A stretch of DNA of 64,000 bases from Phyllosticta citribraziliensis (GCF_038025025.1 NW_027117342.1:434001-498000); one strand, 5' to 3'. Positions 7,882 through 61,240 are shown, counted from the stretch's first letter. Notes: generated by a model from the letters alone, not told the origin. A program made the numbers and translations.

Positions 7882-9818
7882 TCAAGTTCTCCTCCTCTTC
7901 CTCCTCGCCGGCCCACTCATCTCAGCACGCCGCCTCTTCCTGCCCCACCCATGCGCTCTGTACAGGCTTTGCTGGAGAGGCCCAAGAGACTGCGGCTGAA
8001 GACGCACCTTCGCGCCCACCTTCCTCGTAATCGGCTTGCCGTTCGGAGCACGACAGTGGCCCAGTAGAGAGCACCGGACGCAGTCATCAAACTCCTCAGG
8101 CGGCTCCCAGTTATACTCCCTCTTAGCTTCCTCGATCAGCCACAGGTCCTTATGGCACTCATTCATAATCTGCTCCGCAGGGAAAAACATCGTGCGCTTG
8201 AACTGGCGCTGCCGCGGCGGCGCCGCGCCCGGCCGCACCCAGCGCAGGTGGTGCAGCAGCTGGCAGATGGTGCGGCAGTCGATGGCGCCGTGGGCGGCGT
8301 GCGTGACGGCTTCGACGGCGAGCCCGAGGCGCGCGAGGTGCGGGTCGGCGTCGTTGAGGGGCAGCCCGAGCGCGACGGCCCACGCGTTGAGGATCGTGTG
8401 GATGCCGCAGGCGAGCTGGCCGCCGGTCTGCGTCGCGGCGTACCGGACGGCGAAGCGGCCGCGGGGGAGGGGCTGCGTGGTGTTGTCGGTCCACCAGCGC
8501 GTTTTGCGGATGAAGTCGCGGACGTACTGTTGCCTGGGACCAGAGACTTGCGGGGGTGGTGGAGGTTTGCCGGTTTCGGGGTCGATTTGACCGCGCGTTG
8601 GTCTTTTGGGACCCGTGCTGTCGTAGACGTCGACGGTGTAGTCTGTTCCCGACTTGTCCTCCACGACGACCGCCAGCACCGTGTGCCCGTTGTCCTTGGG
8701 ATCTTTCGGGTTGGACATTACGACGGGCAAGATCAGATCACGACGTCGCCGCGCAACGTCGGTCCTTTGATCAGGGACCGCGGGCCTCAAGCCGGAATCC
8801 TCGGGGTAAGTGGCCATGCTGTGCACCGTCGGGCCGTACACGCTGAAAGTGTGGCCCCGACCATTAAGACTAATAGCTTCCGTGACAGCCATGATTGCCA
8901 TTACCACCGCGTCGTCGAAAAGGGGCATGCCCAATCTGACGCAAAAACGCGAAGTGGGCGGTACCGGTCCGGGTGGGACTGGCTGGTGTAGAGCGTCGTA
9001 CTTGGCCTGAGGATATTCCGGTCTGAAGGCGTGGATGCTGCGAAGATAGGATTGCCCCTGCGTGGCTTCGTTCGTGATGTCCGGGATGCAGTGGCTGGTG
9101 GTGGGACATGCCTTACAGGTGCCGCAGTGGTTCTCGACAGGACAGCGGGTGCATCCTTGACCTACACCAGACCCCTCGGGACAGTGGCTGGCGACGTTGC
9201 ATTTGGAGCATCCGGATTGCTCTCCATTTTGCTGCTGGTCTTGAGGAGTAGCTGGCAGGACTTGGAGAACGGCTGGCGGATGATTTTGTGGTTGATTTTG
9301 TGGTTGATTCTGCGGTTGATCCTGTGGTTGATTCTGTGGTTGATCCTGTGGTCGATCTTGTGGAATGTCTTGTGGTTGACCTTGTACTTGGTGGTCTTCT
9401 GCGACATCATGCGGAGTGCCTTGCGTCCCCTCCCCACGACCATCATCATCGCCGCTCTCATCACCCTCCGCCCACGCAATCCCTTGCCAAAGCACGTCAA
9501 CCTCCGCATCGCCCCTCAAATCGACCGTGCTCCCAAAAAGCCCCAGTCCCCAATTCGCATCAAACGCCGGCGCCCTCTTAACAACCTTCAAATGAACCAA
9601 CAGCGCAAGCAGCAGCGCCGGCGTCGCCTGGCCCTGCACCGCCGACGCAACGACCGCCTGCGCGTACTTCTTCTGCTGGTCCGTCCACTTGGCGTCTTTG
9701 GTGGCGAGCTCGAGGCCCAGAGCCAGCGCCGCGGCGATGAAGATGACGGTGAACTTGCGCGCCGTGTCGTCAGAGCGGCGCGCAGCTGTCCAGGTGTAGG
9801 CGATGGCGGGCAGCTGGT

Positions 9819-9852
<34 letters not shown>

Positions 9853-10269
9853 ATCGAACCACGCGCCGCGCTGCAGGAAGCCCGTCACATCCGTCTGGAG
9901 AGCCTGGTACTGTGCCGGCCGCGGCAGCGCGTGCGAGGTGCTGTAAAAGTGAATCTCGACAGTGGCGCCATCGTCGGCGAAGAGCGCGTGGACGAGCAGC
10001 AGCTGCGTCTCGGTGCCTTTGACGTGGCGGGTCCACGGGAACAAGATGTTTTTCTTGCGTCGCCATATGCGGCGGTCGAGATTCGCGTTGTTGGGTTGCT
10101 GGCACGCGTCGATGCGGTAGAAGCTGAACTCGTCGTTGTTGGTGCTGCTTTGGCTGATGGCTTCGGTGACGCTGAGGATGGCCCTGATGAGCTGGTCGTC
10201 TGTTGGTGCTGTCGTGACGGGGGCGGGATTGGGGTATTGGGTTTGTAGATGGCCCAATGGGTTCGACAT
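7882..10269 (-). CDS. Uncharacterised intronless ~795-aa protein with tandem Ulp1/CE-clan-like domains (N copy inactive, C copy intact); paralogue A
   Basis: Uninterrupted ORF from ATG 10269; collinear similarity with the 58823-61240 ORF; C-terminal 'LILPVV..GHTVLA..VYDSTG..TQTGGQLACGIH' pattern; CxxCxxxxHC motifs; basic C-terminus. Confidence 0.85.
9282..9380 (-). repeat. Imperfect 12-bp coding tandem repeat (QPQN/QPQD) in paralogue A
   Basis: Repeated 'gattYtgtggtt'-like units on + encoding QPQDQPQNQPQD... on the minus strand. Confidence 0.85.
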
Positions 10270-10773
10270 GTTGGATTCTGTTTGCTGGAGCTCCTGAGAC
10301 TCGTTTAGTCGTAGACTCGTTTTCCCTGACGTCTTGAAGATGTCGCAAATCAACAACTCTGACAGCTCAAGTCAGCGAGACGTCTCTTGTAAAAGGTGGG
10401 ACGATACCATTTCCCTTTGTTGCCCACGCCCAAGCAATCAAGCAGTCTTGCTTTGTCAACCCGATTCCGGCGGGACGACCATCCATCAAAGCGGTTCGTT
10501 CTTTGTCGGTCAAGACGATGTGATGGTAGCTGCGGCAGTAAACTCGACATTCGACACGGCGGCATTGTGGACGCCGCAGATGCTGTAAAGTGTGAGAATT
10601 AAATCGGCATACATGCGTTCGAATGGAGTGCCATGCAAGAAAATGATCAACAGAATACAGTGGCTAGAATGCACGTCCTCGCCAGATGGATGCTTTCTTG
10701 CTTGCTTGCGCGCTGGGTATACACCACAGTCTTGTCGTCCTGCTCGTCTTCCATCACCGTTCCCCGCACCAAT

Positions 10774-11657
10774 CTACATCCGCCGAATATGCTGCTCCTC
10801 CTCAAACGCGACGACATCGCCCTCCTTCTCCAGCTTGTCCCACCACGCAAACAGCATGTTCTCGCAAATGAGCTTGAACCAGGGGGTGAACTTCAAGTCG
10901 GGCTGCGCAAACATGTCCCTCAGCTCGTCCTTGGTCACGTAGCGGGTGTCGCGGACCTCGTTCAGGTTGGGCTCGACGAGCACCGCGTGCTTTGGCTTCG
11001 CAAACAGGATGTAGTCGATCTCGTGCTCGCCCCACTTGCCGTCGCTGGGCGCCAGGTAGTGGATGCGCGTCAGGAACTTGAACGCCTCGGGCGGCACCTG
11101 CGCCGCGGGGATACCCAGCTCGTGGCCCAGCTTGCGCGTGGCGGCGCGCTTGGCGCCCGCGACCGACGAGGGCAGGTCGGCGCCCGTCTCGCTCGGCGTC
11201 CCCAGCGGGTGCGAGCAGCATGTGTTTGTCCACATGTCCGGGAAGGTGATTTTCTCGCTCGCCCGCTGCTGCAGCAGCAGCCGGTTTTGTTGGTCGAAGA
11301 GGAAGACGGAGAAGGCGCGGTGCAGGAGGCCCTTGTTGATGTTTTCCATGAGGTGGCCTGCGCGGGCGGCGTCAGTGGTCTGTAGGGATCGGTGGTGGTG
11401 GTTGTGGTGTTGAGGGTCGACGTACAAACTTTCTTGCTTGCGCTGCCAATCGGCACGTCGTTTTCGTCCAGCACAATGCACACTTCGTCCATCAGGCGGA
11501 TCTGCTCTTCGTCGTAGCCAGCCAGGTCGGCGTCGGCGCTGCGGCCGCCGCTCTGGCGAGCCTGGCCAATGACATTGGTGTCGACGTCGCCGGCAAAGAG
11601 GCGGAGGATGTTGTCGGCGGTGATGGCCGTCGTGGTGGTTGTGGTGGTGCTGCTCAT
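10774..11657 (-). CDS. IDI1: Isopentenyl-diphosphate delta-isomerase (type 1), 2 exons
   Basis: '[17 protein letters not shown]', '[12 protein letters not shown]', '[25 protein letters not shown]', '[11 protein letters not shown]', 'FTPWFKLI'. Confidence 0.97.
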
Positions 11658-12061
11658 GTTGGGCGCGAGAATGCAAAGGAGCGTCGATTGAAAGAGCGAA
11701 TTGAGGGGTGGAGAGGGTGGATAAAAGGCGTCGAGGCGGTCCCTGTCCGTCGGGGGATTTATAAATTGTTGTCGACGGGATGGCGTTGAGTCGCGGTTAT
11801 GCAGGCCAGCGGCCAGCCAGGCCGGGCCAGGGTCCAGAGCGGGAAGACAGCCCCGCCTCCGAGAGCCACAGCTGCCAAGCCCCTACAACGCTTTTATAAG
11901 TCAAGCTTTATTCAAGCACATCAAAACTCATGTATAGCTCTAATTGTTCGTTCCTACTGTGAGCAACGGACCCGCGTTGACTCGGTGTCCGACGACAATC
12001 CCTGTTGATCCACCCTGATCCGCTACCACGTCTCATCAACGCCGAGGTATCTACGAAAACA

Positions 12062-15000
12062 TCACCACGCCCGCTTCTTCCCCTTTGCCTCCTTGGCTGG
12101 CGACAGAGCCGGAAACTCGTCAACCTCCTCATAACCCCCAGTAGCCACGCCATCATCTTCATCTCCATCTCCGTTATCCCTCCTGCTCTGCTCCTCCGCC
12201 AGACTCAATTGCAATGCAAACTCCAAATCCTCCGCCTCCTGATCGCGACTGGGTCCTGCGTCTGCCTCTGCCTCGACAGGAGAGCGCCTCGAAGAGCCTG
12301 CTCGAGGCGAAGATTTGCGAGTCTTGACTCTGATGGGGACGTCAAACGCGTCGACGTCGTCACGAGGCAGAGGCAACTCTGCGCTCGCCTCGCCAGCCTC
12401 CAACAGGCTCTGCCGAATCGCCTCGGCCAAATCATCATCCACATCCTCATCATTATGCATGGGCGGACTGCTGGACGGCGTGACGGTAGGAGCAGCCGAT
12501 GACACAGCGCTCGACTCCAGACTGCTGGCCTCGCTCCGTTTCCTCTTGGCCTCATCCGCCAAACTCTCTTCCGAAAGCAGAGCCGCGTACGCCAAAGCTT
12601 GCTCCTCGTCATCGATGAGATCAACGCCAAACCGACCAGCAAGACGCTCGGCCTCGCGCTCCCGTTGAATCTGCTCGCATTCCATCTCGTACTGCTCACG
12701 TTCCATGTAGCTCCTCAACTTGTTGCGGCCCGACGCCGAAAAGCCTCCGCCTCCATTGTGGCCGCGCTCGTGGTGCCGAAGCCTTCGCTTGCTGCTCTTG
12801 TACGCGTCGGCCGCGCTAGAGCTGTAGCTCCAGCAACGGAGATGATTGCCGAGCGAGACAACACCGCGGAGGACAGTGGGGTCGGGGTCGAGGCAAATGG
12901 CTCCGGCAGCATACATGTTGATGCCAACGCCGTGGGTCGAGGCTTGCGCCTGAGCCAGAATACGTCGAGCGCGGGACGAGAAGCGTGAATTGAGTGTCCT
13001 GATAGGAGACATGGTCGAGGCAAGCGGATCCCACGACTGGACGAGCCCATCACTGCCGCCGTGGACGAGGTACAGAGCAGTCATCCCGAGACAGGAAATC
13101 TCTGGCGAGTCTGTATAAATGACGCGGATCGGGTCGACTGTATTAACGCGTCCGGCAGACGGCCCCACCGGCGCACGCATGTCCCAAAGAAAGACACTTC
13201 CGCTCTTGGTGCCAGCCGCCACGAGACGAGCTCGCTGGCCCGGAACATCGGCAGGAGACGCAGGTTGGCTCTTGTCTGACAGAGGCGAAGCAAAGGGCGA
13301 CGACGCCGTCGAAGAGCCCGAAAATCCAAAGATGGGGTCCTCGGATAGAGTCATCGTTGCGTAGGTAGAAATGTCCAGAGTCGTCGCAGCTATCTCAATA
13401 TTCTTGGCGCCAGTAAAGACCAGTTTCGACGTGCGCCACTCCTCGATAGAAGCAGCTCGTTCGGGTGACGGGGCGTCAGACCGGACAGGATCTCCAAACA
13501 GCGAACCAGTCACTTGAGCAGCGTCCTTTTGCGGAAATGCAAGACGTTTGTTCGGGACTTTGAGACGAGTGTAGCGCGTGACAGCCGCCCGAGAGTCCTC
13601 ATCAAGCCCACACTGAATCACGACAACAGCTTCTCCCGCATCATTGCCATCATCGCCGGCAAAGTCGACTTCCAGCCTCCTTCTCATGTCCCAACCAAGA
13701 CAGGCATGGCGATAGTCCTTTGGCTGGAGGCGGAAGTAGGGTTCCATTTCCAGAGTCTCGGCTTTGACCTGTTCTTCACCAAGACACATGCCATCCCACG
13801 ACGACCTGGGCGAATAGCTGGGGTCCGCCGTCTTGGGGTCGCGGTACGGATTGGGCCGAGCGACGCGTCTGCTGGGCTCGACGAGATTCCAAAAGACGGT
13901 GCGGCCGATAGCCCAAGACATGCGCTCCAACGTGGCATCATCCAGGCCGCGAGGAAGCGACCCGGGCGTTTTGGGCAATTTGGACAGGTAAAAGACCTCG
14001 CCCAAAGCGTTGAGAGCAGTGCACCAAACGCGGCCTTGAGAGTAACGCTTGGACGAGTATGATTCGTCGACCGCAAGCGCGATGATGGGCACTCCGGGAC
14101 TGAGGACCCATCGCGCAGTGACTTGACCACGTCCAAACTGCGGCTCTTTCAGAGGATCGTCAGTGCCCAAGCTGTAGCTGCTGACGACTCCAGACGAGGA
14201 GCCGACGAGAATGCCAATCAAGCCGTCAGTCAGTGTCGGAATGGCAGGAGACTTGGCAATCCAGACGGAGCAAACAGCCTCGAGCGACGCAAACAGACGC
14301 GGGATTCCCAGCTCCGGCTCATTCAACTCCATGGGCAAGGACAGAAATCGTCCACGCATCTCCTTGGTAGAGCGATAGTGGATGGAGCCGCCGGGAAAGC
14401 CTTCTCCCAGCACCGATCCGTGAGGCTGGCTGACGTCCATGACATTGGGATTGCCGACGATGTTACCAGCGCCCAATCCCCACATGGATCCGGCATAGCG
14501 CTCGTAGAATTGCGGGAACAGGGGCAAGTCCGTCGAGCCCCATTTGCCCGTCTTGGCCTTAAGCGGGTCGCTAATCGAAGCACTCCCCAAATCATCGGCT
14601 CCGTGGATAAAGGCGGCAGTGCGTTGATTGAGGGCGGTGCCCCAGCTGGCGTGCAGGTGGTTGACGAGGGAATCGAGATTCGAGTCGTACATGGTGAAGG
14701 CCTGAGGCGACTGGACTTGAGCGCGCGGATTCGCCGGCAGAGCCATGGGCTTGCCTCGACTGAGCGATCGCAGCAGGCGAGTGCGCAGAATGTACTCGCT
14801 CCGCCAGGACGCCAGAGCCGTGAGCCGGGCAAAGGCGCGGCGCTCGGTGCGCACGTCATCTTCATCGTCCCCCAAGGAGTCTGCCGTGTGGACGAGCGAC
14901 TGGGCGCCGAGGAAGAAGCGCGCAAACGCGCTCCGCCACGCGTGCGGCGTCGTGACCAGCGCGTGGAAGCGATGGCACACGAGCGACACGGCCGACAGGT

Positions 15001-15436
15001 CGGTCGGCGACAGATGCGATATGGCGTGCGTCAGGATCTCTACAGCAGGGTCAGCCTTGCGTCAGTCGCTCACAAACGCGAGCAACCCACCATTCGGAAG
15101 CTTCGTGATGGCACAGTTGTTGTCGCCAGACTTGGGGCTCGTCTTGATGACTTCAAAGAGCGGGCCGGAAGCTCGCCTCTGAGGCGTCGTCGCCAGGGCG
15201 TTTGCGTACTCGTCGATTCGGTTGCGTAGCGGCGGCGGCGGCGGCGGGCTGCGCTTCAATCGCGGGCTCTTGACTGCACCTGCGCCGGCATCGCCTCCCA
15301 CAGCGTCGCGAGAGCGCTGGGGAGTGAGCGGCTGGTCTGGCGCGTCGAGTCCATGCTGGGGCGAGGCGGGATCGATCTGGGGTTGGGTCGCGGGGGCGGG
15401 CACGTTTGGAGAGACGTCGGAGGGCGCTGGGTGCAT
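12062..15436 (-). CDS. F-box protein with WD40-like repeats and C-terminal UIMs (Pof10/Ufo1-like)
   Basis: F-box 'ITKLPNE/ILTHAISHLSPTDLSAVSLVCHRFHALV' across one intron; WD-like 'VFLWDMR', 'GGSDGLVQSWDP'; UIM-like 'EQALAYAALLSEES', 'DLAEAIRQSLLEA', 'DLEFALQLSLAEEQS'. Confidence 0.85.
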
Positions 15437-16270
15437 AAAAATTTCGCAAAGGGGAGTTGGAGCGGTGGTCGACTGAGCGGACACGTTTGCTCAGTCGTAT
15501 GGCGTTTGGGCGAGCGGTCGCGGTGGTTCGAAGGCCTGAGGTGTGGTTGATGGAGTTGGTCAGAGATTGTGACGTTGAGATGGATTGGGATGACTGCCGG
15601 CTCTTGGCGGGTCGGCTGTTTCGCTTGGCGGTCGACGTCCGGGGATTCGATGGTGATAGAACAAAAGACTGCATCAGGTAACGACTCGTATTGACTGGCT
15701 TGTAAAGACTGGGGTAGTGGATGATAGGGTGCAAGGTGTAGCTAGTTAATAGGAGCCGGTTTTACCCATCTGCTCAGTCACTTCCCAAAGCAGTAGTCTG
15801 TTACTGCCCCAACAATGGACTTTAAAGACAGCAAATTTGAGATTTGACTGGAATACTATCGACTTTTCATGTTGAGTGCCGCGATGAAATGGAGTGTTGC
15901 AGTTCAGAACGCTCTCGCTCATGATGCGTCATCGAGAATCAACCACTGTACAACATCCTTCTCACCAACAACGTCGTTCCAACCCACCGACCTTTTCACA
16001 TCTTCAAGCAACCCAACATAATCGATTGACGATGCATATATCCACCAGACAGCCGACGGCCTGAACCGTTACACATCCACATCTCATTCGCGCCGTCCCG
16101 TTGTCGGATCCGAAGTCGGCCACAACAGTAGAGATTGCGCGGGCCCGTCCGCCCGTCATCCCATCATCCACATGATGCAAACGAGTGTGCGTGGAGAGTC
16201 GCATGAATCGATCAAGTCATCTCGATTCCATTAATCAAAGCATACATACATCACCCACCACCAGCCAGCC

Positions 16271-16274
<4 letters not shown>

Positions 16275-16305
<31 letters not shown>
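16275..16305. repeat. Poly(A) homopolymer, 31 nt
   Basis: Direct count of consecutive A. Confidence 0.95.
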
Positions 16306-16307
<2 letters not shown>

Positions 16308-16403
16308 AATAACCAAACATCAAATCAACAAGAATCAGGGGGGTATCATTAACGCAGCAAGCAAGCCTGCGTTTTGTTTAAAACTCTCTTCTCCCTCTCC
16401 AGC

Positions 16404-16808
16404 TCACTCCAATTCAATCCACGCCGCGCCGCCATGCCGCGGCCCATGGCGGAAGAAGCCCTTCAGCGACGCCGAAACGCCGCGGCGATGCGCTTGCACG
16501 TGGCCGCGGCCATAGCCGTTCGTTTCTCCCCGCGACGCGTCGACGTCTTTTCGCTGCTGCTCTTGCAAGTGATGATGATGATGATGATGATCCTGCTGGT
16601 TCCGGGTGCCGAGGTTGCCATATTGTTGCTGTTGGCGGTAGTGTTGCTGTGGTTGCCGTTGATGTTGGTACTGCTGCTGGTGCGGGAAACAACTCATATC
16701 CGGCACCAGTGCCACAGTGCGCGACAGGATCTCGGCGGCTGGCTGGCTGCCCGGTTGGAAGAAGCGGTCTTGGTGCAGGAGCCAGCACGAGGGGCTGGTG
16801 GTGCTCAT
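16404..16808 (-). CDS. Possible small orphan Q/H-rich protein (134 aa)
   Basis: ATG in good context (CAAAATGAG), upstream TATAAA (~17135-17140, minus strand) and pyrimidine-rich leader; low-complexity product with no recognisable domain. Confidence 0.35.
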   Translation of the reverse strand: MSTTSPSCWLLHQDRFFQPGSQPAAEILSRTVALVPDMSCFPHQQQYQHQRQPQQHYRQQQQYGNLGTRNQQDHHHHHHHLQEQQRKDVDASRGETNGYGRGHVQAHRRGVSASLKGFFRHGPRHGGAAWIELE

Positions 16809-16902
16809 TTTGGTTTGCCGGGTGTGTTTACGTTGTGACCGCGTCGATGATAGATGGAGTCCGAGGGAGGCAGACAGGAAGAGTGTAGGTAATGCCGAGC
16901 TA

Positions 16903-16925
16903 TGTGTGTGTGTGTGTGTGTGTGT
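16903..16925. repeat. (TG)n microsatellite
   Basis: About 11 TG units seen directly. Confidence 0.9.
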
Positions 16926-18206
16926 TTGCGCTGTTGTTTGACAGAGAGCCGGCCAATCTGGTCAAGAAGCGTACGTAGGCCGAGGGAGCCGTGTGATATA
17001 GTAGCAGGAAGAGGAGGAGGAGTAAGACGAGAGAGAGCCAAGAAGGCAGCGAGGAGACAGGCGGACGGACGAAGACAAGCAGCACGAAAGAAAGAAAGAA
17101 AAAACCCAAGAACAAAACCGACAGATCCCACAGCTTTATAAACCATCCCAAGCGATTAGACGGATACCTACCAGGTATGTACCCACCCGTTCTTATCCCT
17201 CATCAAGAATCAACAAGAAGCTAGCGGAGCGGAACCCACAGCTCGTCGTTTTCTCGTCCCAGAGTAGTCAGCCAGCCACATGTCCAGCCAATCGCGCCGC
17301 CTGCTTTTCCAATCAAGACGTGGTCCATGAGCGAATCGCAAGACCCGCGTTGTCAGCTGCGACGCGGTGATTGGGGAGCGAGGCAGTGAGTGAGTGACTG
17401 AGTGAGTGAGTTAGTGGGCTCGTGGATTGGCATTGCGCTTGCAAGCCTCCCTCCTCCCCATTATTCGCTTGCCTGCCTGCCCGTCCGTCCGTCCGTCCGT
17501 CCGTTCATTCGTCTGCGTCATCATCGGCATCATCATCTCCATGCGTACGGATAGCTCCGGCCCAGCACCAACACCATCACAGCAACGACCAGCAGTTGGT
17601 CGACAAAACCGCGCACCCGAAACCGGTTTGTTTTGAGCGACGAGTGCAGGTTCTCCGGCGGTCCGGTCCGAAACAGCGGGTAAGTGAGTGGGCGCGCTGG
17701 CTCGTCCAATGGCGACGCTGCTATACAGCTGTTGTTTTCTGTTCGGCTGGGCGGTCGTTGGTTGCTGCTGTTGACGAAGATAAGATGATCATGACTGATG
17801 AGAGATTTTTTCTTCTCTTCTTTTTCATCGGCTATCTTTGCTGTCTCTTTGCTCTTCTGGGTTTGATTGGCGTCTTTGACCGGTCTGTCTGGCTGTCGAA
17901 AACGACGATGGTGGCGGTGATCGAAATATCTACCTTACCTTAGCCCAGCACACATCCACGCGTCCGTCCGTCCGTCCAATGTGAGATGAGGTGAGACGAA
18001 AAAAAGTAGAGAAACACATGTGGCAAAAGACAAGCAAAGGAAAACAGATAAGAAAGAAAACGCAATAAGTAGGAGTGTAGGAGTGTAGGAGTGAAGTTCT
18101 CTCTGTTCTTTCTCGTAGTCTATTTGGGGATGTAGGTAGGGTATATCAACACAGTATGTACGCAGCGTCAAGGAAAAGGAAAGAGACTGGTAACAGCGTG
18201 CTCTGC

Positions 18207-25566: not shown

Positions 25567-25571
<5 letters not shown>

Positions 25572-25607: not shown

Positions 25608-25609
<2 letters not shown>

Positions 25610-50876: not shown

Positions 50877-53264
50877 ATGTCCTTTGACCCATCCCAAGAC
50901 ACGGCTGCCGGAGCCCTTGCGCCAGGAGAAGAAATCCCCTCAAACAATGTCGAGGGCTCCAACGGCATTGGCACCGGCCCTCAGGTCGTTAGCACCTCCC
51001 CCGGTCTCCAGCTTCAGAGCGGCCCGTTGCTCAACTTCAAGCGCATGAGCGGCGTTGCGACAGGACGTCCCACCTGGCATGGCAGCGTGCTCATTGTGAC
51101 GACTCCAGGCCAGCAGAAGCCAGAACTGCTCTTGAACGAGCTAGGCCCCGTCCACGGCGCCACGCCGCCCACCGAAGCCACCCCGCGCCGCTTCGAGGGA
51201 TTCCTGCTCTACGAAGACGCCCAAAAGGCTTTTTGGCGCTTTGGAATTGAGCTCCCCTTCCTCGACTACGAGACCCGATGGCAGTACCACATTCCCAACC
51301 TGCATCCCGTCCTGGGAGGCGAGCGCGCCAACAACGACGTCGGGACCCGCGTCTTTGCCGTCCCGGCCATCTCGCAGTCGATGCGCATTCTATTCCATTC
51401 GTGCAATGGCTTTTCAGTCGGTACCGACGTCGACGCCTGGTCCGGTCCGGCCCTCTGGAATGACGTGCTGCGCAACCACGACCAAAAGCCCTTCCACGTC
51501 ATGCTGGGCGGTGGCGACCAAATCTACAATGACGGCGTGCGCGTAGACGGCCCGTTGCGCAACTGGACCGAGATTTCGAATCCGAAGAAGCGCCAGCACT
51601 TCCCCTTTGACGAGGACTTGAGGGACCGCTGCGACGAGTATTATTTCAAAAATTATGTTCGCTGGTACAATACCAAGCCGTTTGCCGACGCCAACGGCCA
51701 GATTCCGCAGTTGAATGTTTGGGACGATCACGACATTATTGATGGCTTTGGTTCCTATACCGATCATTTCATGAGGTGTGCCGTCTTTCGCGGCATTGGA
51801 GGTGTTGCTCACAAGTGAGTCTCGGCTTTTTTGATTGGCCAATGGCAATCTAACGGTTTCAGATATTATATGCTTTTCCAGCAGCACCTTGCTCCGCCCA
51901 AGAGCACGTTTACCACGGATTCCCCAAAGACGGTCGAGCCCGGCGCCGACGGCACTCCCGCTGACCCCGTTCAGATGAGGGATACGTTTGTTGCCGAGGA
52001 GCCAGAGGATGAGGAGGCCTACATTAATGGCGACAAGCCCGGCCCCTACGTCGAGGAGCGGAGTCGCTCTCTCTACGCTCAACTCGGCGCGCGCATTGCC
52101 TTTTTGGGAATTGATGCGCGCACGGAGCGTACCCGCCACCAAGTCAACTACCCCGACACGTACAACAAGATCTTTGCGCGCATGGAAAAGGAGTTTGCTA
52201 CCAATCGCGAAATCAAGCATCTCGTGCTGCTTCTTGGAGTTCCAATCGCCTACCCTCGTCTGCAGTGGCTTGAGAACGTCTTGCAGAGCCCCCTGATTGC
52301 TCCCATTCGTTTGCTGAACAAGCGCTTTGGTGTGGCGGGCAGTCTTTTCAACCATTTTGATGGCCAAGTCGACATCTTGGATGATCTCGACGACCACTAC
52401 ACGGCCCATAACCACAAGGCGGAGCGCAAGGAGTTGATTCTGCGCCTGCAAGACCTTGCCAAAAAGTACAGTGTTCGCGTCACGATTCTTGGAGGCGACG
52501 TCCATCTCTGCGCTTTTGGCCGCTTCTACAGCAAGCCATCGCTGCAAATTCCGACAGAGCGCGACCACCGGTACATGGTCAACATCGTCAGCAGCGCCAT
52601 CACCAACAAGCCGCCGCCGCAGCCCGTCGCCAACCTGCTGGCGCGCCGCAACAAGATCCACCACCTGGACTCATCAACGGACGAGACGCTCCTCGAGCTG
52701 TTTGACCGCCAGCCGGGCTTCAGCGCCGATGGCAAGGACGAGAAGAACGTCGGCCGCAAGTCGGGCGAGAAGAACTTTTGCACCATGCCCTCGCGCAACT
52801 ACGCCATCATCGCCGAGAGCAACGACGTGGGCTCGCCTCCCACCTCGTCCAACGGCTCTGCTGCCTCGGCCGGCGCCCCCGCCTTCCAGACGCTCAACGG
52901 CGCGCTGGCGCCCCCCGGCGCGCCCCCTGGCACCGCCAACGGCTCCACCCACGCCCCGTCCGATGCGTACACGGCCAGCGTCCCCAGCACCGCGGGCTCG
53001 GATGTGCAGCCCAACGGCGACGCCAACGGCTCGCTCGAGCCTCCCCCCGCCGCCGGCGGCAAGAAGGTGAATCCGCGCCGCGCGCTGCATCCCGGCGAAA
53101 AGGGCGCTGGCGCCCGCCATCCAGCTGCGAGCGGCCTGGCGCCCACGCGCATGGGCGGGCCGAACGGCCTCGACGTCACGTTCAGAGTCGAGGTCACCAA
53201 TAAGGATGCGCAGGGCGCGACGGACGGGTATGGCGTTGTTGTGCCGGGGCTGGAGGTTGAGTGA
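50877..53264 (+). CDS. Fungal PhoD-like metallophosphatase-domain protein, 2 exons
   Basis: 'FHSCNGFS', 'HVMLGGGDQIYND', 'WDDHDIIDGFGSY', 'DARTER', 'DDLDDHY', 'LGGDVHL', 'VSSAITN'. Confidence 0.85.
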
Positions 53265-53827
53265 GTGAGTTAGTGAGGTTGCATCTGTGAGTTGGGAGTG
53301 AGAGTGAGAGGAGAGAGGAGAAGTATTTGAGTTTGCGGAGGCCGTGTTGGTGGGTCTGTTTTCTTCGTTTTTCTGGCGGCGTCGTCGCATTCTTTTTCAC
53401 TGGATTAATATCTAGATCCCCTTCCTTTCCTTACCTACCCCATACTACCCATCTTACCTACGGAGATACCCACCCCCTTTTGGCGTCTTGTAGTTTGTAG
53501 TTGACGTGACGGCTGGCTGGTCATCTGTCTGTTTGCCTGTCTGTCTGTCTACTTTCCCCCATTGGCGCTTAGTTACTTAATACCACATCCACTGTATTAA
53601 TCAATCTCAGTTGTATAGCATATCATAGCATAGCATATCATATCATATCATATCAAAAGCCTTGGTCCATCACCCGAGTATACACGCTGTGAATTGGGTT
53701 GGGGTAATCCAGACTTGGCCCGTTTATTTTACAATCTGCCAACATTCCCCGCGACTTCTCAGTCTCCGCAACATCCACTCCTCACACACCTAAGCATCCA
53801 CATCCCATCCCATCCCATCCCACCCCA

Positions 53828-56775
53828 TCACAACTCCCTCACAAACCCCACCTCAACAAGCTTATCAACCGGCACCATCATCTTGGCAACCTTGGCCCGC
53901 GTATTCGCCCTCAACCACAAAAACACGCCCAACACGCCCTGCCGCCACCAATCCCAGTAGCTGCCCGGCCCTATTAGCCGCAGCTCCTCCTTGCCCACGA
54001 CGTACACGACCTGCGTCGCGTAGGCCGCGTCCAGCGCCGCCAGGCGTCGCTTGAGCGCGCTGTCCGGCAGCGCCGTGTACGGCGTGTCGGCGGGCCCGGC
54101 GAAGCGGACGGACGAGTTGCGGCGGTGGCGCGAGGGCGAGGGCGAGGGCTTGACGCTGTCGCCGTGCGAGTGCGGGTGCGAGTCGCTGCTGCTGCTGTGG
54201 CTGCGGCGGCCCTCCGATCCGGAGCCGGCGCCCTCGCCGACGCGGTCGATGAGGATGGACGGCGGCGCGGGGCTCGTGGCGCGCGGCAGGCCGACGTGCG
54301 CCGGGTCGAAGGGCCCGGGGATGATGCTGGGTTCCAGACTGGCGGCGGGCTGGCGCGTCGTCGGCGACGCCTTCGACTGCGTTTTGGCCGTAGGCGCCGT
54401 TTTGGGATTGAAGGAAGCAGAGTCGCTGTGCGTGCTGGCGGGGCGCGCGGCGCGGACGAGGGCGTGGCGCAGCTGCGTATACACCGTCGATCCGAGGTCG
54501 AAGTTCACGGGGTGGTCGTTGTAGCCGTGGCGGATGGTCAGGCGGTAGCAGTTTGGCATCGACGTGCCGGACGCCGAGTAGCGCTCGTCGTCGGGAATGT
54601 GCGGCATATGCAGCGCGCGCAGGTGCAGAAAGACGTGGACGTCCTGCTGCGCTTCAAACTTCTTGATAAACTCCTCGTACACAGCGGGGACCTTGTCGCC
54701 GGCTTTGTCGAAGAAGATGCCGAGGCCTTTAATGTTGTTGATTTCGCCGCCGCCCCAGCGGTCCGTCAGGCGCGGCTTGCCGTCTTCGTCTTTGATGATG
54801 AGGTCGCGGAGGTCGATGCGCTTCTTCTCTTCGGCCGCCCACTGCTTCTCTTTTCCGTATCGCCAGAGGATGAAGACGCTGCAGAGCAGGATGGCCAGGA
54901 CGAAGGTGAACCAGGCGCCGTCGATGAATTTTGTGGCCGCCGAGGTGAGGAAAAGTCCGTCCAGCGTGATGAAGACGAACCACACAGGGAGGACGACGAA
55001 CCAGCGGAACCTCCAAACCATGAGAGCGGTGATGGCGACCAGGTTGGTGGTGATGAAAGCGACGAGAATGACGCAAAAGCCGTAAGCGTGTCCGAGTTTT
55101 GTGGTCTATACAGTTAGCGACGATTGACGAAGGAGGCACAGTGGGTGCGAAGAAATGATGCCCCTAGCAGCGACTGTGGCCTGAGCCAACTTACATTATT
55201 GAAAACAGCCGTGACAATGACAGTACCAATCATCATGAGCCAATTAGCTACCGGAATATAAACCTGGCCGTGAAACTTTTCGCTGGTATAAATCATCTTG
55301 ATCTGAGGAAAGTAGGACATGTTCATGACCTGCGAGAGCAGCTGAAACGTGCTAGTGATGAGAGCCTGTGAGGCGACAATGGCGGCCAGGATGGAAATGA
55401 TGAGCGAAGGATACAGCATTCCCGGAGGTACCGTGTTGAAAAAGGGGTTGGAGTAGGCGCCCTCATTCTGGGAAATGTTGGCAGCTTGGCCAATGTAGGC
55501 GAGGAGCAAGCACGGGTATGCGAGACCAAGCCAGGAAATTTGAATGGCCCTGAACCGTCAGTATTGAACACGATAGCAAGATGAGTGCTCACTCTTTGGA
55601 AAAGGCGCCCATGTCGGCAAACAGTGCCTCGACACCAGTAAAGCACAGCAAGATACCACCAAGGGAGATCCATCCGTCAGTCTTGTTGCGAACCAAAAAC
55701 TGGCCGGCAAAGTAGGGCGAGAAGGCCTTGAGGACAGTCCAGTCGAAAGTCACCAAGTTCTGACATGGTTAGTACACAAACCAAGGATGGACTACATCAC
55801 TTACATAAATGCCAAAGCAGAGGTTCAAAAGGAGCCAGACGACGACAATCGGGGCAAAACCGCTCGCAAGCCTCGAGATTCCAAGTGGCTGGAGCAGGAA
55901 CAAGAGCACAAGAATGGCGCAGGAGACGCCAATGATGGTGCTGCTGGAGATGCCCGGAGTGACAACCTTGAGGCCTTGCACTGCACCCAGGACGGATTGC
56001 GCAGGAGTCAAGATGCTGTCCGACAGGACAAGACTGACACCAAAGACCGAGAGCGCTTTGAGGACTGCATGCGAGACGCGGCTATTCTCCAAAAAGTCGC
56101 GCAAGCTGCGGGTGCTGGGTCGCAGCTGGTTCGAAGCGTATCGCTCGAGTTTGTAGGCATTCTTCTTTTTCGGGTCTTGCTTTGCAATGTTGCACTGTCG
56201 CCGTCAGTCAAGGCCAGGCAAACATCAGAAGCACCTACATAGCGAGACAACAAACTGTAAATCGCAAAGGTACCACCCTCTCCTTCATCATTGGCATACA
56301 AGACTATGAGGACATATTTGATAGTCACAATCAAGGTGATAGACCAAATGATGAGGGAGAGAGCTCCGAGAAGGTCGTCATGAGATGGCTCCGAAGAAAA
56401 GGTGGACGAGTATACGTAGAGAGGACTTGTTCCAATATCGCCATAGATGACGCCGATGGACTGGTAAGCCAGCCTAGAGCCACGTTAGCGACGCTGCGAA
56501 CCACTGTCGGCTAACCAACCATAGCAAAGTCCATCCCCGAAAGACCTGTCGCTGTTAGCCCGGTTGAAACGAGAGAAAGGGTGTGGTACCTGTTTTTGCT
56601 TAAAGTCTCGGCTCTGCACGTCAAGAGCCTCCTCCTCGTCGTAAATGAGGTCAATGTCTTTTTCCACGCAAGCGGCGTCGTCGACTCTCGCAGAGGCGCG
56701 ATTTTTCAACTGATGGTTGTTGGACAAGGCAGTCGACTCGATGATGAGCTCAAGATCGCGAGAGGCGTTTGCCAT
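53828..56775 (-). CDS. KT/HAK/KUP potassium transporter, multi-exon (includes a 26-nt exon 56521-56546)
   Basis: '[20 protein letters not shown]', '[15 protein letters not shown]', '[17 protein letters not shown]', '[10 protein letters not shown]', '[11 protein letters not shown]', 'AYGF'. Confidence 0.93.
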
Positions 56776-57834
56776 TACTTGGTAACGCAGCGCACTGTGT
56801 GGATGGAAAAAAGCGCGCAGTGGTGGTCTGGCACACGTCGACGTCCGCGTTGGGCAGGCTGCGGGATTTTAGACACGGTGCAGCAGGAAACAACGAGCCA
56901 CGCGACAGGTTGAATGACAGGATAGGCGGAGCAGGAATCCCTCTATAAGCTCAAGTGTCGGGCTGTGCCATTCCTAGTTGACCGAGCTCATGACTGCTCC
57001 TTGAACGTGATGGTAGGAGGGTTTGCCCATCAGCGGAGCGCCGGACGAGGCGCAGGCGCAGCCAGCATCGTCAGGCAGGGCCAGGCATGGCCATGGTGGA
57101 CTCTGCCAAGTCGAAAACACAATTGTCTCGTCGTTATCGTCAGCCGCGGATTGGCAGACAAATGCCGCAGCAAAATATCCCGCTACAACCTTTTCTTCAG
57201 CGGCTTTCATTCACCATCGTTTGCGGTGGTCGATTAAATTTCGTCTTTGTCCTCACTAGCACTGCCCTCTTCCCAAATGACTGCCAATTTTCACCGTCTT
57301 TCTTTGACTTCTCTGCGGCAATTGAGAAGGCTGACAGTCGTACTCCGAAAATGCGGGGAACTGTGCGACCGGTACGACCACATGCCATGCAGCCAGCGGC
57401 GAGTCAGGCCATGGATACTTCAATTCAATACAAACGTCCGGCAAGGCACTTGAGAATCCATCTCGTAAAACTAACCTGTTGTTGAATTGACGTGGGCCGC
57501 GTCGACCTTCCTTTTGAGGAGACGAAGATCTCCAGAATTCAGTTTTCATCCAGGTCAACACGTGCGTAAAGATCCGGGGTATTGCTGGTCGATGGCGGTG
57601 ACGACAAGCTGTTAATTGTCCGTTTACATGATCAGCGCAGGGAAAGACAGCTGAGCAAAGCTGCCCTACACTAGCACACATATAGGGCAATAGGTGAGAC
57701 TTGAAGCCGTTTGCATCGTGTTCGCAGCGTAGCCTCCCTTGGACCGGCGTGGGTGGCTCCGTCAATCCATTCGTGTGCGCCATTTTTCACGGCGGCGGAG
57801 GCCGACGCGGAAACCAGACAGGGGGGTCCATCCA

Positions 57835-58422
57835 TCAGCCAAACCATTTCCCCAGAATTCCTGCACCGCCTCCTCCACCTTGTCCGCGACGCTTGGCTTC
57901 GCTGATGATCCACTGCCGCAAAAAGTCGCGATTTTTCATCTTGTCCACCGCCGTCACTCGCGTTTCAAACTGCGCTTCTTGTCGGTCAAACGCCAGCAGT
58001 GTCGGCATCGAGTTGATCTGTCGTTCCTTCAGCAACAAACCCCTGCGATTGATTCTTGTACTGACGCGATATGTTATGGGCAAGTCTCCAATCGTCACCG
58101 CGTCCACCTCGACCTCTGCGTATCCGACTCCGCCCTGCTCTTCACCGACGCCCTCTTTGCCCACCAGCTCCTCGAGTATCGGCTTGACGGCCTGGCATGA
58201 TGGACACCACGATGCAGTCCAGAGCGTGAGGAGTGGCCGGCGCGTGCTGGCGCTGAGGAGGAGCAGGTTGGCAAACTCGTCTGGATTGCGCACCGAGGTG
58301 TAGATTCGATTGGCGTTGTTGGCGGCGGAGCGGGGCGCGCTGCTGGAGAAATTGCAGCGAGGGCGGGAGAGGAGGAAGCGGAGGATAGGGCGAGCGGAGT
58401 GAGAGGGCCGTGCGAACATCAT
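57835..58422 (-). CDS. Thioredoxin-like protein with probable mitochondrial presequence, 2 exons
   Basis: Arg/Ser-rich N-terminus; 'LWTASWCPSC' CxxC; cis-Pro loop 'INSMPTLLAF'. Confidence 0.85.
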   Translation of the reverse strand: MMFARPSHSARPILRFLLSRPRCNFSSSAPRSAANNANRIYTSVRNPDEFANLLLLSASTRRPLLTLWTASWCPSCQAVKPILEELVGKEGVGEEQGGVGYAEVEVDAVTIGDLPITYRVSTRINRRGLLLKERQINSMPTLLAFDRQEAQFETRVTAVDKMKNRDFLRQWIISEAKRRGQGGGGGAGILGKWFG

Positions 58423-58822
58423 CTTGCGAGGTTGGAGTTGGTGATGGTCTCGATGTTCTCGGGGACCTTTTGGAGTCGACACACGTCATTGGTCTGTGCG
58501 CCGCGAGCGATTCTATTGGCTGAATGCTCAACCCGCAAATCTTAGCATTCAACCAAGGCCTGGTCGCAAAAGCCGTGGCATACATAATGATGGCAGGTGC
58601 TATTTCACAATATTCATACGCTTCTTTTAATGACTGGGAACGTTCGAGGACTGATTCGCAAAACCTCAGTATTGTGTGCCGTACGCTGCTACCAAGCCTC
58701 GATCTATCTCCTTTGCACATTAAATGACCCCAGATTCAATGGAAACAGTGAGAAAATGAATGATGAAGAGAATTGAACGTTGAGACATCAAGTAGTAAGT
58801 ATCGCTGTACTCCCTCCACGAC

Positions 58823-61240
58823 TCAGGTCCTCCTCTTCTTTCTTTGCTGCACGGGTACAATCTCCACGCCGTTTCTTCTCTTCCTGCCCTGCCCATCCCT
58901 CCTATGAAGTGAATATACTGGCGCAGTGCAATGCTGTGGGGTTTTGCAAGTATTGCAATAGTTGCACCCATACTCCAACATTTCATAGTCCTTATTGTCT
59001 TGGTTTTCCTTGTTCCATAAGGAAATATGATGGTCTCGCAATTCGCATTGGATGGCAACGGGGCACGTCGTCTTGAAAATACGGTCTCCTGGCGGCTGAC
59101 TACCTGGCTGGATCCAATCCAAAAAGTGGAGGAATTGGCAGATGGTCTCGCAATCGACTTCTCCATAGCAGGCATGCGTAATGATCTCAATGGCTCGGTG
59201 GAGACGCTTTAGGTTCGGTTTTTGATTCAACGGCAAGTTTAGAGCTGCCGCCCATCCGTTCAGGATCGAATGAATCCCGCATACCCACCCTTGATTTTGA
59301 TGCGGGACTGTCGGCCAGGTAAATCTTCCCTGTGGAATAGGATTGTCGTCGTTTGCCCACCATCTCGTTCTTTGCAGAAAGTTTTGGACATATTGTTGGA
59401 CTCGTGGAGGCTCCAAAAACGTACCCGATGAGTCGAAGACCTGGGCACTCCAGGTGCCTTCTGATTTCTCGTGTCTTATATAAGCCACAACGATGTGTCC
59501 TTTTTTGCCTGTGCTGACTTCCAGTTCTTCGTCTGATTCCGGTTCTTCATTATTCATAACAATTGGCAATACAACGTCCTTTCTTCTGCGGACGATGTCG
59601 AATCTTGCATCTAATTCCGAGGCGTTGTCAGAGGGCGCTGGCCTATCGAACCCGAATTTGGCATTGTCAAGCTGTAATAGGCTGTACAAACTGAATTGTT
59701 TGCCTCTCCCATTAAGACTTATGGCTTCTGTGACAGCTAGGGTGGCCCGTATGACATCGTCTTCGTCCAGATATATCCCGTCCCGGGTACAAAACCATTC
59801 GTGCAAAGGCCCAGTAAGCTTGCCTGAATGGTCTTTTGTCGCTTTTTTGAACACCTTTGTATTTTGGAACTGTTGCCTGGATTTGTGAATGCTCCGGTTA
59901 TACAAGTCTCCTCTGCTGGCGTTTGGTAAAACTGTTGGAACGCAGTGTGGGAACACAGGACACCCTGAGAAACAGTGTTTGTCCACAGGACAGTTGATAC
60001 AGCTTGTGTCGTTGCTGTCGGAATTTTTCCCGCAGTGACCAGACAAAGCGCAATTGATGCATTGCGGTTGCTGTCCGTTCTGCTGTCCGTTCTGCTGTCC
60101 GTTCTGCTGTCCGTTCTGCTGTCCGTTCTGCTGTCCGTTCTGCTGTCCGTTCTGCTGTCCATTCTCTTGCCCATTCGGCTGTGCATTCTCCTGTCCATTC
60201 TGCTGTCCAGTGGGCGGTCCGTCCTGTCGATCATCCTGTGTTCGATCCTGCGTATTCTGCGTCTGCTGCGTCTCCTGTGGTGTATTTCCCGAAGTGTCCA
60301 GTAGCGGATCTGGCAACTCGGTTCGTTCACCCTCTTGGCCCGTCTGTCCCCGCTCACCTTCCCCATCCTGCGTGCCGCCATCATTGTTTCCCACAGATGG
60401 AGAGATCAACGCCCTCACAGTCGTGTAATGCGCATCAAACGCGGCACCGCTCAAATTGACCGTCCGAGCAAAGAGTCCCGCCTGTGGCCATTGGGGGTCA
60501 AAGTCGCCAGTCACAACCTTGGCCTTGACAAGCACAGCGAAAAGGACCGAAGGCGTTGCTCCCCCGCTGGCCGCATCTATGATGGCGGCGCTCACGTACT
60601 GTTTGTCCTTTTCAATGTTCTTTTGGCTGCCCAAGTTGGGCAACTTGGCAGCGATTGGCAGTTGCAGCGCGATGGCCCAGGCGATGAGGAAGACGAGGTA
60701 GCGGGGGTTGTTGAGGGGGTCTCGAACCAAATCGATCCATGTTGCGAAGGGAGCTGGTGGGGGGTTGAGATTGGATCCAAACCAGTTTCTGTAGTGCAGG
60801 AACCGCATGACGAGCTGTGTCTCCGTATTTTTCTCACTGTCTGTGATAAGTAGCGAGGAAACATCGTAAAACGTAAGCGCAACGCTTTGTTGTGTGGGTG
60901 TAGCATTGCTTCCTCCCTGTTGGGTGCTGTTTTGAAGGCGAACGTGAACGAGTATAAGCTCATTCTGGCCCTGAACGGGCTGGCCCTGAGCGGTCAATAT
61001 CCATGGGAGCAGGACTGGCTCTCCGCTCCTGAGGATGGGATCGATTTGCGAATTGCTGCCCAGGCCAGTCCATAAGTTGCTAGGGTCAAGGCCGAATTGA
61101 TTGTTCGGGTCGCTCTGGCTGATGGCTTCCGTGACGCTGAGTATGGCTCGACGGATCAAGTCCTCGTTTGGCTCCGTAGCTGGCACTAGATTTGGATATT
61201 GTCTCTTCAGAACTTTCGTTTCTTCCCTCCAGTTGACCAT
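58823..61240 (-). CDS. Uncharacterised intronless ~805-aa protein with tandem Ulp1/CE-clan-like domains; paralogue B
   Basis: Uninterrupted ORF from ATG 61240; collinear with 7882-10269; 'YLDEDDVIRA', 'DVVLPIV', 'GHIVVAYI', 'VFDSSG', 'VPHQNQGWVCGIH'. Confidence 0.85.
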   Translation of the reverse strand: MVNWREETKVLKRQYPNLVPATEPNEDLIRRAILSVTEAISQSDPNNQFGLDPSNLWTGLGSNSQIDPILRSGEPVLLPWILTAQGQPVQGQNELILVHVRLQNSTQQGGSNATPTQQSVALTFYDVSSLLITDSEKNTETQLVMRFLHYRNWFGSNLNPPPAPFATWIDLVRDPLNNPRYLVFLIAWAIALQLPIAAKLPNLGSQKNIEKDKQYVSAAIIDAASGGATPSVLFAVLVKAKVVTGDFDPQWPQAGLFARTVNLSGAAFDAHYTTVRALISPSVGNNDGGTQDGEGERGQTGQEGERTELPDPLLDTSGNTPQETQQTQNTQDRTQDDRQDGPPTGQQNGQENAQPNGQENGQQNGQQNGQQNGQQNGQQNGQQNGQQNGQQPQCINCALSGHCGKNSDSNDTSCINCPVDKHCFSGCPVFPHCVPTVLPNASRGDLYNRSIHKSRQQFQNTKVFKKATKDHSGKLTGPLHEWFCTRDGIYLDEDDVIRATLAVTEAISLNGRGKQFSLYSLLQLDNAKFGFDRPAPSDNASELDARFDIVRRRKDVVLPIVMNNEEPESDEELEVSTGKKGHIVVAYIRHEKSEGTWSAQVFDSSGTFLEPPRVQQYVQNFLQRTRWWANDDNPIPQGRFTWPTVPHQNQGWVCGIHSILNGWAAALNLPLNQKPNLKRLHRAIEIITHACYGEVDCETICQFLHFLDWIQPGSQPPGDRIFKTTCPVAIQCELRDHHISLWNKENQDNKDYEMLEYGCNYCNTCKTPQHCTAPVYSLHRRDGQGRKRRNGVEIVPVQQRKKRRT
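60071..60154 (-). repeat. Perfect 12-bp tandem repeat x7 (CTGTCCGTTCTG on +) encoding QQNG in paralogue B
   Basis: Seven exact copies counted, followed by degenerate copies. Confidence 0.95.

Follow-up and report, generated by a model that had tools for sequence, protein, structure and literature searches.

Two long intronless genes, here called A and B, lie on the minus strand of a 64,000-nucleotide stretch of the Phyllosticta citribraziliensis genome (GCF_038025025.1 NW_027117342.1:434001-498000; this whole stretch is called the window below), and the question that the locus raises is what kind of protein the two genes encode and how far their family extends. A preliminary description of the window proposed that A and B define a lineage-specific family in which a pseudoprotease is joined to an Ulp1-like protease. 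The answer that we favor, with moderate confidence, is that A and B arose by an old duplication of one host gene and that each encodes an intracellular Ulp1/SENP-type cysteine isopeptidase (clan CE, C48 in the wide sense).

Two collinear paralogues

The two genes are located as follows.

7882..10269, minus strand: gene A, intronless open reading frame (ORF) of 795 amino acids (aa) plus stop (ORF reading, BLASTP)
58823..61240, minus strand: gene B, intronless ORF of 805 aa plus stop (ORF reading, BLASTP)

Both ORFs were intact and had exactly the positions and lengths first reported for them. There is an in-frame stop immediately upstream of the ATG of B, and a rough estimate from base composition (57.9% G+C; not a tool output) puts the chance occurrence of an 800-codon open frame at ~1e-12. 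When A was compared with B by BLASTP, the alignment scored 322 bits (E 2e-102) with 279/861 identities (32%), and it extended from residue 8 of A and residue 11 of B, at the N-terminal QYPN motif, to the last residue, at the terminal KRRRT of A and KKRRT of B. Motifs common to both proteins included QYPN..RAILSVTEAISQS, AVTEAISLNGRG, RRR.D..LP, TRWW, CGIH.ILN.WA.AL.LPLN and DC.TICQ.LH.L.W. All motifs quoted in the preliminary description were thus recovered, and its view of A and B as paralogues that are collinear from end to end holds. The further proposal that both frames have been kept open is borne out by orthologues in five Phyllosticta species. A third copy was not found in the 64-kilobase (kb) window by tblastn, nor did blastn find similarity between the flanks of A and those of B. 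Three ORFs of 215-322 aa, at 8152-8991 (plus strand), 9280-10248 (plus strand) and 59737-60384 (minus strand), lie across A or B, either antisense to it or in a different frame; judging by their repeat-like, Arg/Leu-rich composition, they look like by-products of G+C-rich coding and repeat sequence.

The layout first described for the pair was also found in both proteins: domain 1, an acidic and Q/N repeat, Cys/His motifs, domain 2, a further Cys/His motif and a basic tail. For A, the parts are located as follows.

9436..10215, minus strand: domain 1, residues 19-278, catalytically dead Ulp1-like copy (local domain-1 hidden Markov model [HMM] 1e-107, domain-2 HMM 1e-10)
9211..9435, minus strand: linker, residues 279-353, acidic and Q/N/P-rich repeat (sequence)
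9088..9210, minus strand: three CX2CX4HC motifs, at C354, C373 and C385 (motif reading)
8089..8940, minus strand: domain 2, residues 444-727, Ulp1-like (HMM; reads His-Asp-Gln-Cys)
8683-8685, 8620-8622, 8428-8430 and 8407-8409, minus strand: catalytic codons of H529, D550, Q614 and C621
8053..8082, minus strand: fourth CX2CX4HC motif, at C730 (motif reading)
7885..7944, minus strand: basic tail GRKRRR..RRKRRRT (12 K/R among the last 30 residues)

The corresponding parts of B are these.

60374..61183, minus strand: domain 1, residues 20-289, catalytically dead Ulp1-like copy (fold scan, hhalign)
60062..60373, minus strand: linker, residues 290-393, acidic and QNG-repeat, disordered (predicted local distance difference test [pLDDT] 29-37)
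59942..60061, minus strand: two CX2CX4HC motifs, at C394 and C414, and a shortened CX4HC, at C427 (motif reading)
58964..59785, minus strand: domain 2, residues 486-759, Ulp1-like (structure match, conservation)
59495-59497, 59432-59434, 59297-59299 and 59279-59281, minus strand: catalytic codons of H582, D603, Q648 and C654
58928..58957, minus strand: C-terminal CX2CX4HC, at C762 (motif reading)
58826..58885, minus strand: basic tail RKRR-x10-RKKRRT (11 K/R among the last 30 residues)

In the AlphaFold2 model of B, both domains were confident and residues 284-433 disordered (mean pLDDT 74.4). The CX2CX4HC motifs would be expected to bind zinc, and when read against the consensus for bipartite import signals, the tail of each protein is a putative signal of that kind.

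Domain 2 is an Ulp1-like protease domain with a full catalytic set

Direct searches told against a protease assignment. Neither protein matched any Pfam family, even at E ≤ 1, so that PF02902 (Peptidase_C48) was reached by neither A nor B (0 families at E ≤ 1); a profile built from the two sequences found no Ulp protease in the PDB, its only row being a chance Agenet match (E 0.76). Because of these two results, the link to Ulp1 was built in three steps, through a family profile, a search of the PDB with a profile, and structure.

A profile of the C-terminal half was scored against 1.84 billion representative proteins. Among the 28 relatives that were scanned, PF02902 exceeded its cutoff in three (P0011, 33.4 bits; P0015, 39.6; P0016, 33.7), and P0014 fell just under it (19.4 versus 20.7). 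In P0011, P0015 and P0016 the PF02902 matches overlapped the domain-2 HMM matches, which provides a transitive link to Pfam. When a family profile of 47 sequences was searched against the PDB sequences, it matched the Ulp1-like protease for SUMO (small ubiquitin-like modifier) from Chaetomium thermophilum (CtUlp1, 6dg4) at E 2.4e-10, with weaker matches to XopD (5.6e-5) and NopD (1.1e-3). In the pairing with 6dg4, gHisLAV was aligned with sHWtLAV, hyDS with hlDS and rQtdgweCG with rQtnGWdCG, such that the His, Asp, Gln and Cys all faced their counterparts.

Structure gave the same result. Comparison of the B model with the PDB by Foldseek yielded 13 matches at E ≤ 1e-3, led by Ulp1 (2hkp, 5.3e-5), CtUlp1, SENP1 and XopD; the check by AlphaFold and Foldseek that the preliminary description had called for thus returned Ulp1-type proteases as the best matches. 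By VIA-align, residues 437-717 of the model were superimposed on 6dg4 with Z 13.5 and a root-mean-square deviation (rmsd) of 4.5, with 223 of its 253 residues aligned; SENP1 and SENP2 gave Z 13.2-13.5, and the range for Ulp1, SENP1 and SENP2 together was 12.7-13.5. In the 47-sequence alignment, H582 was invariant, and D603, Q648 and C654 were conserved in at least 90% of sequences. The catalytic order His-Asp-Gln-Cys (HDQC) was present in B (H582/D603/Q648/C654) as well as in A (H529/D550/Q614/C621), and it was found in all eight Phyllosticta domain-2 rows, namely A, B and six database proteins. As a lead only, the nearest clusters in the ESM Atlas carried Peptidase_C48 in 17-98% of their members. 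Taken together, these data support the identification of domain 2 as an Ulp1-like domain (clan CE, C48-type fold) with an intact catalytic set, as had been claimed from the sequence.

Domain 1 is a catalytically dead duplicate of domain 2

When domain-1 and domain-2 alignments were compared by hhalign, they matched with a probability of 99.3% (E 1.8e-20) over 227 columns. Moreover, the local HMM of each domain matched the other domain, and by BLASTP domain 2 of A matched domain 1 of P0005 (E 2.5e-10). Residues 1-290 of B were also modeled separately (pLDDT 71.1, predicted template modeling score 0.77). This model had no Foldseek match at E ≤ 1e-3, and nearly all of its top rows were clan CE proteins. 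When 48,161 PDB representatives were scanned without bias, clan CE proteases filled the first 29 rows and the next row had Z 4.0; the scores were Z 9.7 for 6dg4 (183 residues aligned, rmsd 3.7), 9.7 for SENP5, 9.5 for SENP1 and 8.8 for Ulp1.

In the hhalign pairing, domain 1 of B has Glu, Arg and Pro at the positions of the catalytic His, Gln and Cys of domain 2, and the catalytic Asp was matched in domain 1 of B only. Having lost His, Gln and Cys, domain 1 cannot do the same chemistry, and the term pseudoprotease that was first given to it is justified by the replacement of these residues. Across 10 sequences, 26 positions of domain 1 were invariant. Domain 1 is thus an internal duplicate of domain 2 that lacks the catalytic His, Gln and Cys. 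A complex prediction for domains 1 and 2 of B, run without alignments, gave a score of 0.00 that carries no weight either way.

A and B belong to a superfamily of tandem Ulp1-like domains

With the C-terminal-half profile, 229 representative clusters were matched at E ≤ 1e-3, 77 at E ≤ 1e-10 and 11 at E ≤ 1e-30. Of 30 clusters that were looked up, 15 carried an organism name and the other 15 did not; all 15 named clusters were from Dothideomycetes, and it is on these that the taxonomic range rests. They comprise five Phyllosticta species (P. citricarpa, P. paracitricarpa, P. citriasiana, P. citrichinensis and P. capitalensis) together with Macrophomina phaseolina, Botryosphaeria dothidea, Byssothecium circinans, Plenodomus lindquistii, Aaosphaeria arxii, Polyplosphaeria fusca, Oleoguttula, Cryomyces, Zymoseptoria tritici and Pyrenophora seminiperda. 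A word-index search, in which the best 8000 candidates were scored, returned P0007, P0001 and a Neofusicoccum ribis protein, the last being an additional member; the Q/N repeat dominated searches of this kind, and they are no gauge of family size. Another word-index search returned two rows, one of which, a helicase, covered 2% of the query and was rejected as spurious.

Members of the superfamily share a domain of ~250 aa, single or in tandem, with an N-terminal helix motif AVTEAI(S), HDQC, and conserved W627 and W663, and A and B have all of these hallmarks. Among 152 non-redundant proteins, the number of domain-2 HMM matches per protein was one (53 proteins), two (54), three (22), four (16), five (4) or seven (3). 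When matches spanning all four catalytic columns were counted, HDQC was present in 116/140 last domains versus 52/116 earlier domains; with fragmentary matches included, the counts were 116/152 and 52/180. These counts make the order of dead copies first and live copy last a property of the whole superfamily.

Other features were narrower in range. CX2CX(3-5)HC motifs occurred in 11 of the 152 proteins, namely all Phyllosticta members, P0009 from Macrophomina, P0010 from Botryosphaeria and the unnamed P0081. The basic bipartite tail was present in 7/7 full-length Phyllosticta members, with 8-13 K/R among the last 30 residues, and in 0/6 other relatives examined (1-7 K/R). Only Phyllosticta proteins showed a layout of two domains within about 700-800 aa.

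UniRef names for many of the relatives read 'Ubiquitin-like protease family profile domain-containing protein' and, in one case, "Ubiquitinyl hydrolase 1". The domain has thus already been seen by automatic annotation, and to judge by the names, these proteins would match a ULP profile of the PROSITE type. Accordingly, the claim that the family is undescribed stands in part: UniRef already names the domain, and a literature search conducted largely outside subscription journals found no publication on the family. The claim of a lineage-specific domain family does not stand, given 229 representative clusters and multi-copy giants across the Dothideomycetes. Nor are A and B a stand-alone new system; they are an unstudied branch of a known enzyme family.

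Several members deserve separate mention. Giant proteins with several tandem copies are frequent among the clusters looked up; P0009 (2515 aa), P0011 (3133 aa), P0018 (2675 aa) and others have up to seven Ulp-like matches, in which degenerate and HDQC copies are mixed, and they have no Pfam family or a weak C48 match. P0152 from Pyrenophora seminiperda (1444 aa) carries the source name 'Alpha-glucuronidase' yet has three Ulp-like domain matches, and is probably a fused or mis-named model. The 90% cluster of Zymoseptoria P0044 also lists a 50-aa protein from a Bacteroidales metagenome-assembled genome, which looks like a clustering artefact.

Gene history of the pair

In each of the five Phyllosticta species the gene models include a single A-type and a single B-type gene, which share one large contig wherever contigs are listed. 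The two are neighbors by consecutive accessions in P. citricarpa, P. paracitricarpa and P. citriasiana (e.g., KAK7543219/KAK7543220 and XP_066625665/XP_066625666), and their accessions are one number apart in P. capitalensis. In P. citrichinensis they are 22 accession numbers apart (KAK8162021 and KAK8162043), which fits the separation in the window of 48.5 kb, or roughly twenty genes. Going by accession order, A and B are probably an old tandem duplication whose copies were later separated in this lineage. The description of the pair as dispersed thus applies to this window, and does not extend to P. citricarpa, P. paracitricarpa and P. citriasiana, where the genes are adjacent by accession number. 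In a domain-2 tree, the A-type clade (window A, P0004, P0005 and P0154) had a support of 97/97; the B-type relationships were without resolution and the outgroups stood on very long branches, so that the tree does not fix the date of the duplication. At 32% identity, A and B are too diverged for a meaningful estimate of synonymous divergence.

The closest relative of A is P0004 from P. citrichinensis (78.6% identity over 290 aa), and B is 46% identical to P0001 from the same species. The terminal branches of the A pair were 0.10 and 0.13, versus 0.88 and 1.04 for the B pair. Between B and P0001, the disordered linker was best conserved (79-86%) and the protease domain was 33-70% identical; for the same two species, domain 2 of A was 63-93% identical. 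This mosaic in B could stem from diversifying selection acting on the folded domains, from gene conversion or from hidden paralogy. Both P. citrichinensis models are truncated: P0001 (631 aa) starts in the middle of domain 1, without about the first 180 residues, and P0004 (312 aa) consists of domain 2 only, with a different end. These could reflect annotation error or real disruption.

Transcription of B and the neighboring genes

Two sequencing runs from two studies, X1 and X2, contain B; their RNA origin was judged from intron-skipping contigs alone. At least 15 introns of neighboring genes (GT..AG or CT..AC) are missing from the contigs, from which it follows that both runs derive from spliced RNA. 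B is covered with no joint inside the ORF by contigs at 58378-59993 and 60131-61800 (X1) and at 57021-60098 (X2); the repeat at 59994-60130, uncovered among contigs listed, is uninformative. This coverage hints at transcription of B as an intronless gene. In 20 kb, the single difference listed between the window and run X2 is 59037 C>T on the plus strand, as a result of which codon 735 of B reads CAA (Gln) in place of CGA (Arg); this codon lies just past the conserved core of domain 2. The RNA-derived contigs also showed short introns at 61801-61846 and 62351-62401 (minus strand), both in the 3′-terminal part of the MatE gene that lies upstream of B; the former belongs to that gene and not to B. 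One contig spans from the MatE gene into B, which implies that transcripts or untranslated regions of the two genes abut or overlap.

The neighboring genes encode P-type ATPase, MFS, GDA1, PAP2, eIF2B, PhoD, K_trans, thioredoxin-like and MatE proteins. Of 10 other large ORFs tested, 8 had a Pfam family at E ≤ 1e-5 and a ninth was thioredoxin-like (E 1.2e-5). An ORF of 894 aa at 12062-14746 (minus strand), which adjoins gene A, had no Pfam match even at E ≤ 0.1. The statement that every other large gene of the window is a recognizable housekeeping gene therefore needs amending: nine of the ten tested have a family assignment, and the 894-aa ORF has none. Its acidic C-terminal part contains two short stretches resembling what we take to be the consensus of ubiquitin-interacting motifs, which makes it a curious neighbor for a protease of ubiquitin-like modifiers.

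Discussion

Our favored interpretation is that A and B are duplicated host genes for Ulp1/SENP-type isopeptidases. By homology, domain 2 would cleave after the C-terminal Gly-Gly of a ubiquitin-like modifier. This modifier would most likely be SUMO, since it is the SUMO proteases that match best in both structure and sequence; ubiquitin or NEDD8 could also serve. The dead domain 1 may have a non-catalytic role in binding or regulation, directed at the modifier or the substrate, or may regulate domain 2. The Cys/His motifs would bind zinc, the basic tail would carry the protein into the nucleus, and the Phyllosticta pair would represent the two-domain form of a superfamily plan in which degenerate copies come first and an intact copy last. 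That these are host genes and not a mobile element is indicated by the presence of only two copies in the window, the lack of shared flanks, the ordinary neighbors and the occurrence of the pair in five Phyllosticta species.

Several observations weigh against this interpretation. In Ulp1-type enzymes, the Trp after the catalytic His is part of a Trp clamp over the Gly-Gly tail. This residue is Trp in CtUlp1 and XopD, Ile in B and Thr in A, and it is Trp in 1 of 168 HDQC domains of the superfamily, the others having mostly Ile, Phe, His, Thr or Leu. With this Trp missing, the Gly-Gly clamp may differ in build, or the substrate may differ. When domain 1 was searched alone, the best Foldseek row was the acetyltransferase HopZ1a (1.9e-3), and clan CE includes acetyltransferases. 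The coverage of the intronless gene B could be explained by DNA carry-over in the libraries. Finally, both genes diverge far faster than their neighbor: the MFS transporter is 86% identical in P. citricarpa and 78% in P. capitalensis, compared with 39-49% and about 24-40%, respectively, for the orthologues of A and B. Such fast divergence could reflect relaxed constraint as well as adaptive change.

The absence of the His-Trp pair keeps a different activity in play, in which domain 2 would be a specific endopeptidase, like adenain, pS273R of African swine fever virus (ASFV) or poxvirus I7L, that processes partners or the tandem-array proteins. A differently shaped substrate groove would fit the missing pair, ASFV pS273R shares the fold (Z 9.5), monkeypox I7L and the adenovirus protease gave Z 6.7 and 5.7 against domain 1, and the giant multi-domain relatives (up to 3133 aa) superficially resemble polyproteins. 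However, SUMO proteases are the best matches by structure and by sequence, A and B each have only one active domain, and a repeated cleavage-site motif between domains was not seen, with no dedicated search made; we consider the endopeptidase unlikely. A YopJ/HopZ-type acetyltransferase, which would use the same catalytic triad, finds its evidence in the HopZ1a row (E 1.9e-3) and in the presence of AvrA and PopP2 among the structure matches. The HopZ1a rows concern the dead domain, though, and reach Z 7.0 against 9.7 for SUMO proteases in the VIA scan; for domain 2, acetyltransferases stand far below the Ulp/SENP proteases, and the significant matches of the sequence profile are all Ulp-type proteases, which makes this activity very improbable.

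The remaining alternatives concern the genes more than the enzyme. Some Mutator-like and other DNA transposons carry an Ulp1-like protease, and the genes might be remnants of such an element or domesticated from one; in favor of this origin, the superfamily is large and patchy and varies in copy number, and the genes evolve fast. Yet there are two copies in 64 kb that are 32% identical with unrelated flanks, no transposase-like ORF lies beside A or B in the window, and each Phyllosticta species carries the two types once, both on the same large contig where this is listed, so a mobile origin appears slightly more remote even than an acetyltransferase. We regard as the least probable alternative that one or both genes have lost their function and are decaying under relaxed constraint. 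The very fast divergence from orthologues and the truncation of both P. citrichinensis models (P0001, 631 aa; P0004, 312 aa) are in keeping with decay, but both frames are open for ~800 codons, the catalytic tetrad is kept in 8/8 Phyllosticta domain-2 rows, 26 domain-1 positions are invariant across 10 sequences, and contigs from spliced RNA libraries cover B. None of these alternatives is favored by the data over an Ulp1/SENP-type isopeptidase.

A more speculative possibility, which we think unlikely although worth stating, is that the Dothideomycete arrays, with the pair as their minimal form, are not housekeeping SUMO proteases but make up a rapidly evolving system for conflict or surveillance. 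In such a system, the dead copies would be decoys that bind modifier or target, or avidity modules, the single live copy would cut, and the protease surface would be under diversifying selection. This idea stems from the comparison of the protease domain of B (33-70%) with its linker (79-86%) and with domain 2 of A (63-93%). If the fast divergence is adaptive, the family is a candidate conflict system; if it is not, the family is a lineage-specific expansion of a known enzyme.

The fold and the chemistry are already known, and the domain had been flagged by automatic annotation. What appears to be undescribed is the tandem-array superfamily with its dead-to-live polarity, the loss of the His-Trp pair, the two-domain form in Phyllosticta, including its Cys/His motifs and basic tail, and the very fast divergence of that form. 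Proteases of ubiquitin-like modifiers are usually few, conserved and single-domain. Here, a large uncharacterized branch of the Ulp1 fold is present in a fungal class with many crop pathogens and endophytes; unlike the textbook enzymes, it lacks His-Trp, occurs in up to seven tandem copies and tends to retain catalytic residues in the last of them. The smallest form is that of the Phyllosticta pair, in which an intronless gene encodes a dead and a live domain within about 800 residues; it is thus the most tractable entry point to the role of the dead copies and the identity of the modifier.

Comparison with known systems

The closest known systems are the Ulp1/SENP SUMO proteases (yeast Ulp1, 1euv; 6dg4; human SENP1 and SENP2). 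Domain 2 matches them in fold (Z 12.7-13.5 over 200-223 aligned residues) and in how His, Asp, Gln and Cys are ordered and spaced, and in B also in the Q-x2-G-W-x-C-G motif. However, sequence identity is about 10-14%, A and B have no PF02902 match, and the Trp after the catalytic His is replaced; the A/B family also has its own AVTEAIS helix, an upstream dead copy, Cys/His motifs and a basic tail. A and B are not orthologues of the housekeeping Ulp1 or Ulp2. The giant Dothideomycete arrays Macrophomina phaseolina MPH_09440 (2515 aa), Botryosphaeria dothidea KAF4310866 (1701 aa) and that of Byssothecium circinans (3133 aa), all uncharacterized, belong to the same domain family (E 1e-53 to 1e-35) and likewise combine, in tandem, degenerate N-terminal copies with HDQC C-terminal copies; the Botryosphaeriales members also have CX2CX4HC motifs. 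They differ from A and B in being much longer, in having 3-7 domain matches as compared with two, and in lacking the basic tail.

Bacterial clan CE effectors (XopD, NopD, SseL, ChlaDUB and RickCE) have the fold in common with A and B (Z 8-11), and XopD and NopD also gave weak but significant sequence-profile matches. These effectors are secreted, consist of a single domain with other accessory regions and are less similar to A and B than the eukaryotic SUMO proteases are. In separase, a clan CD enzyme, a pseudo-protease domain is packed on the active protease domain. The likeness to A and B is one of analogy only, in that a dead duplicate precedes the active fold in one polypeptide; fold and clan are unrelated, and no contact between the two domains of A or B is implied.

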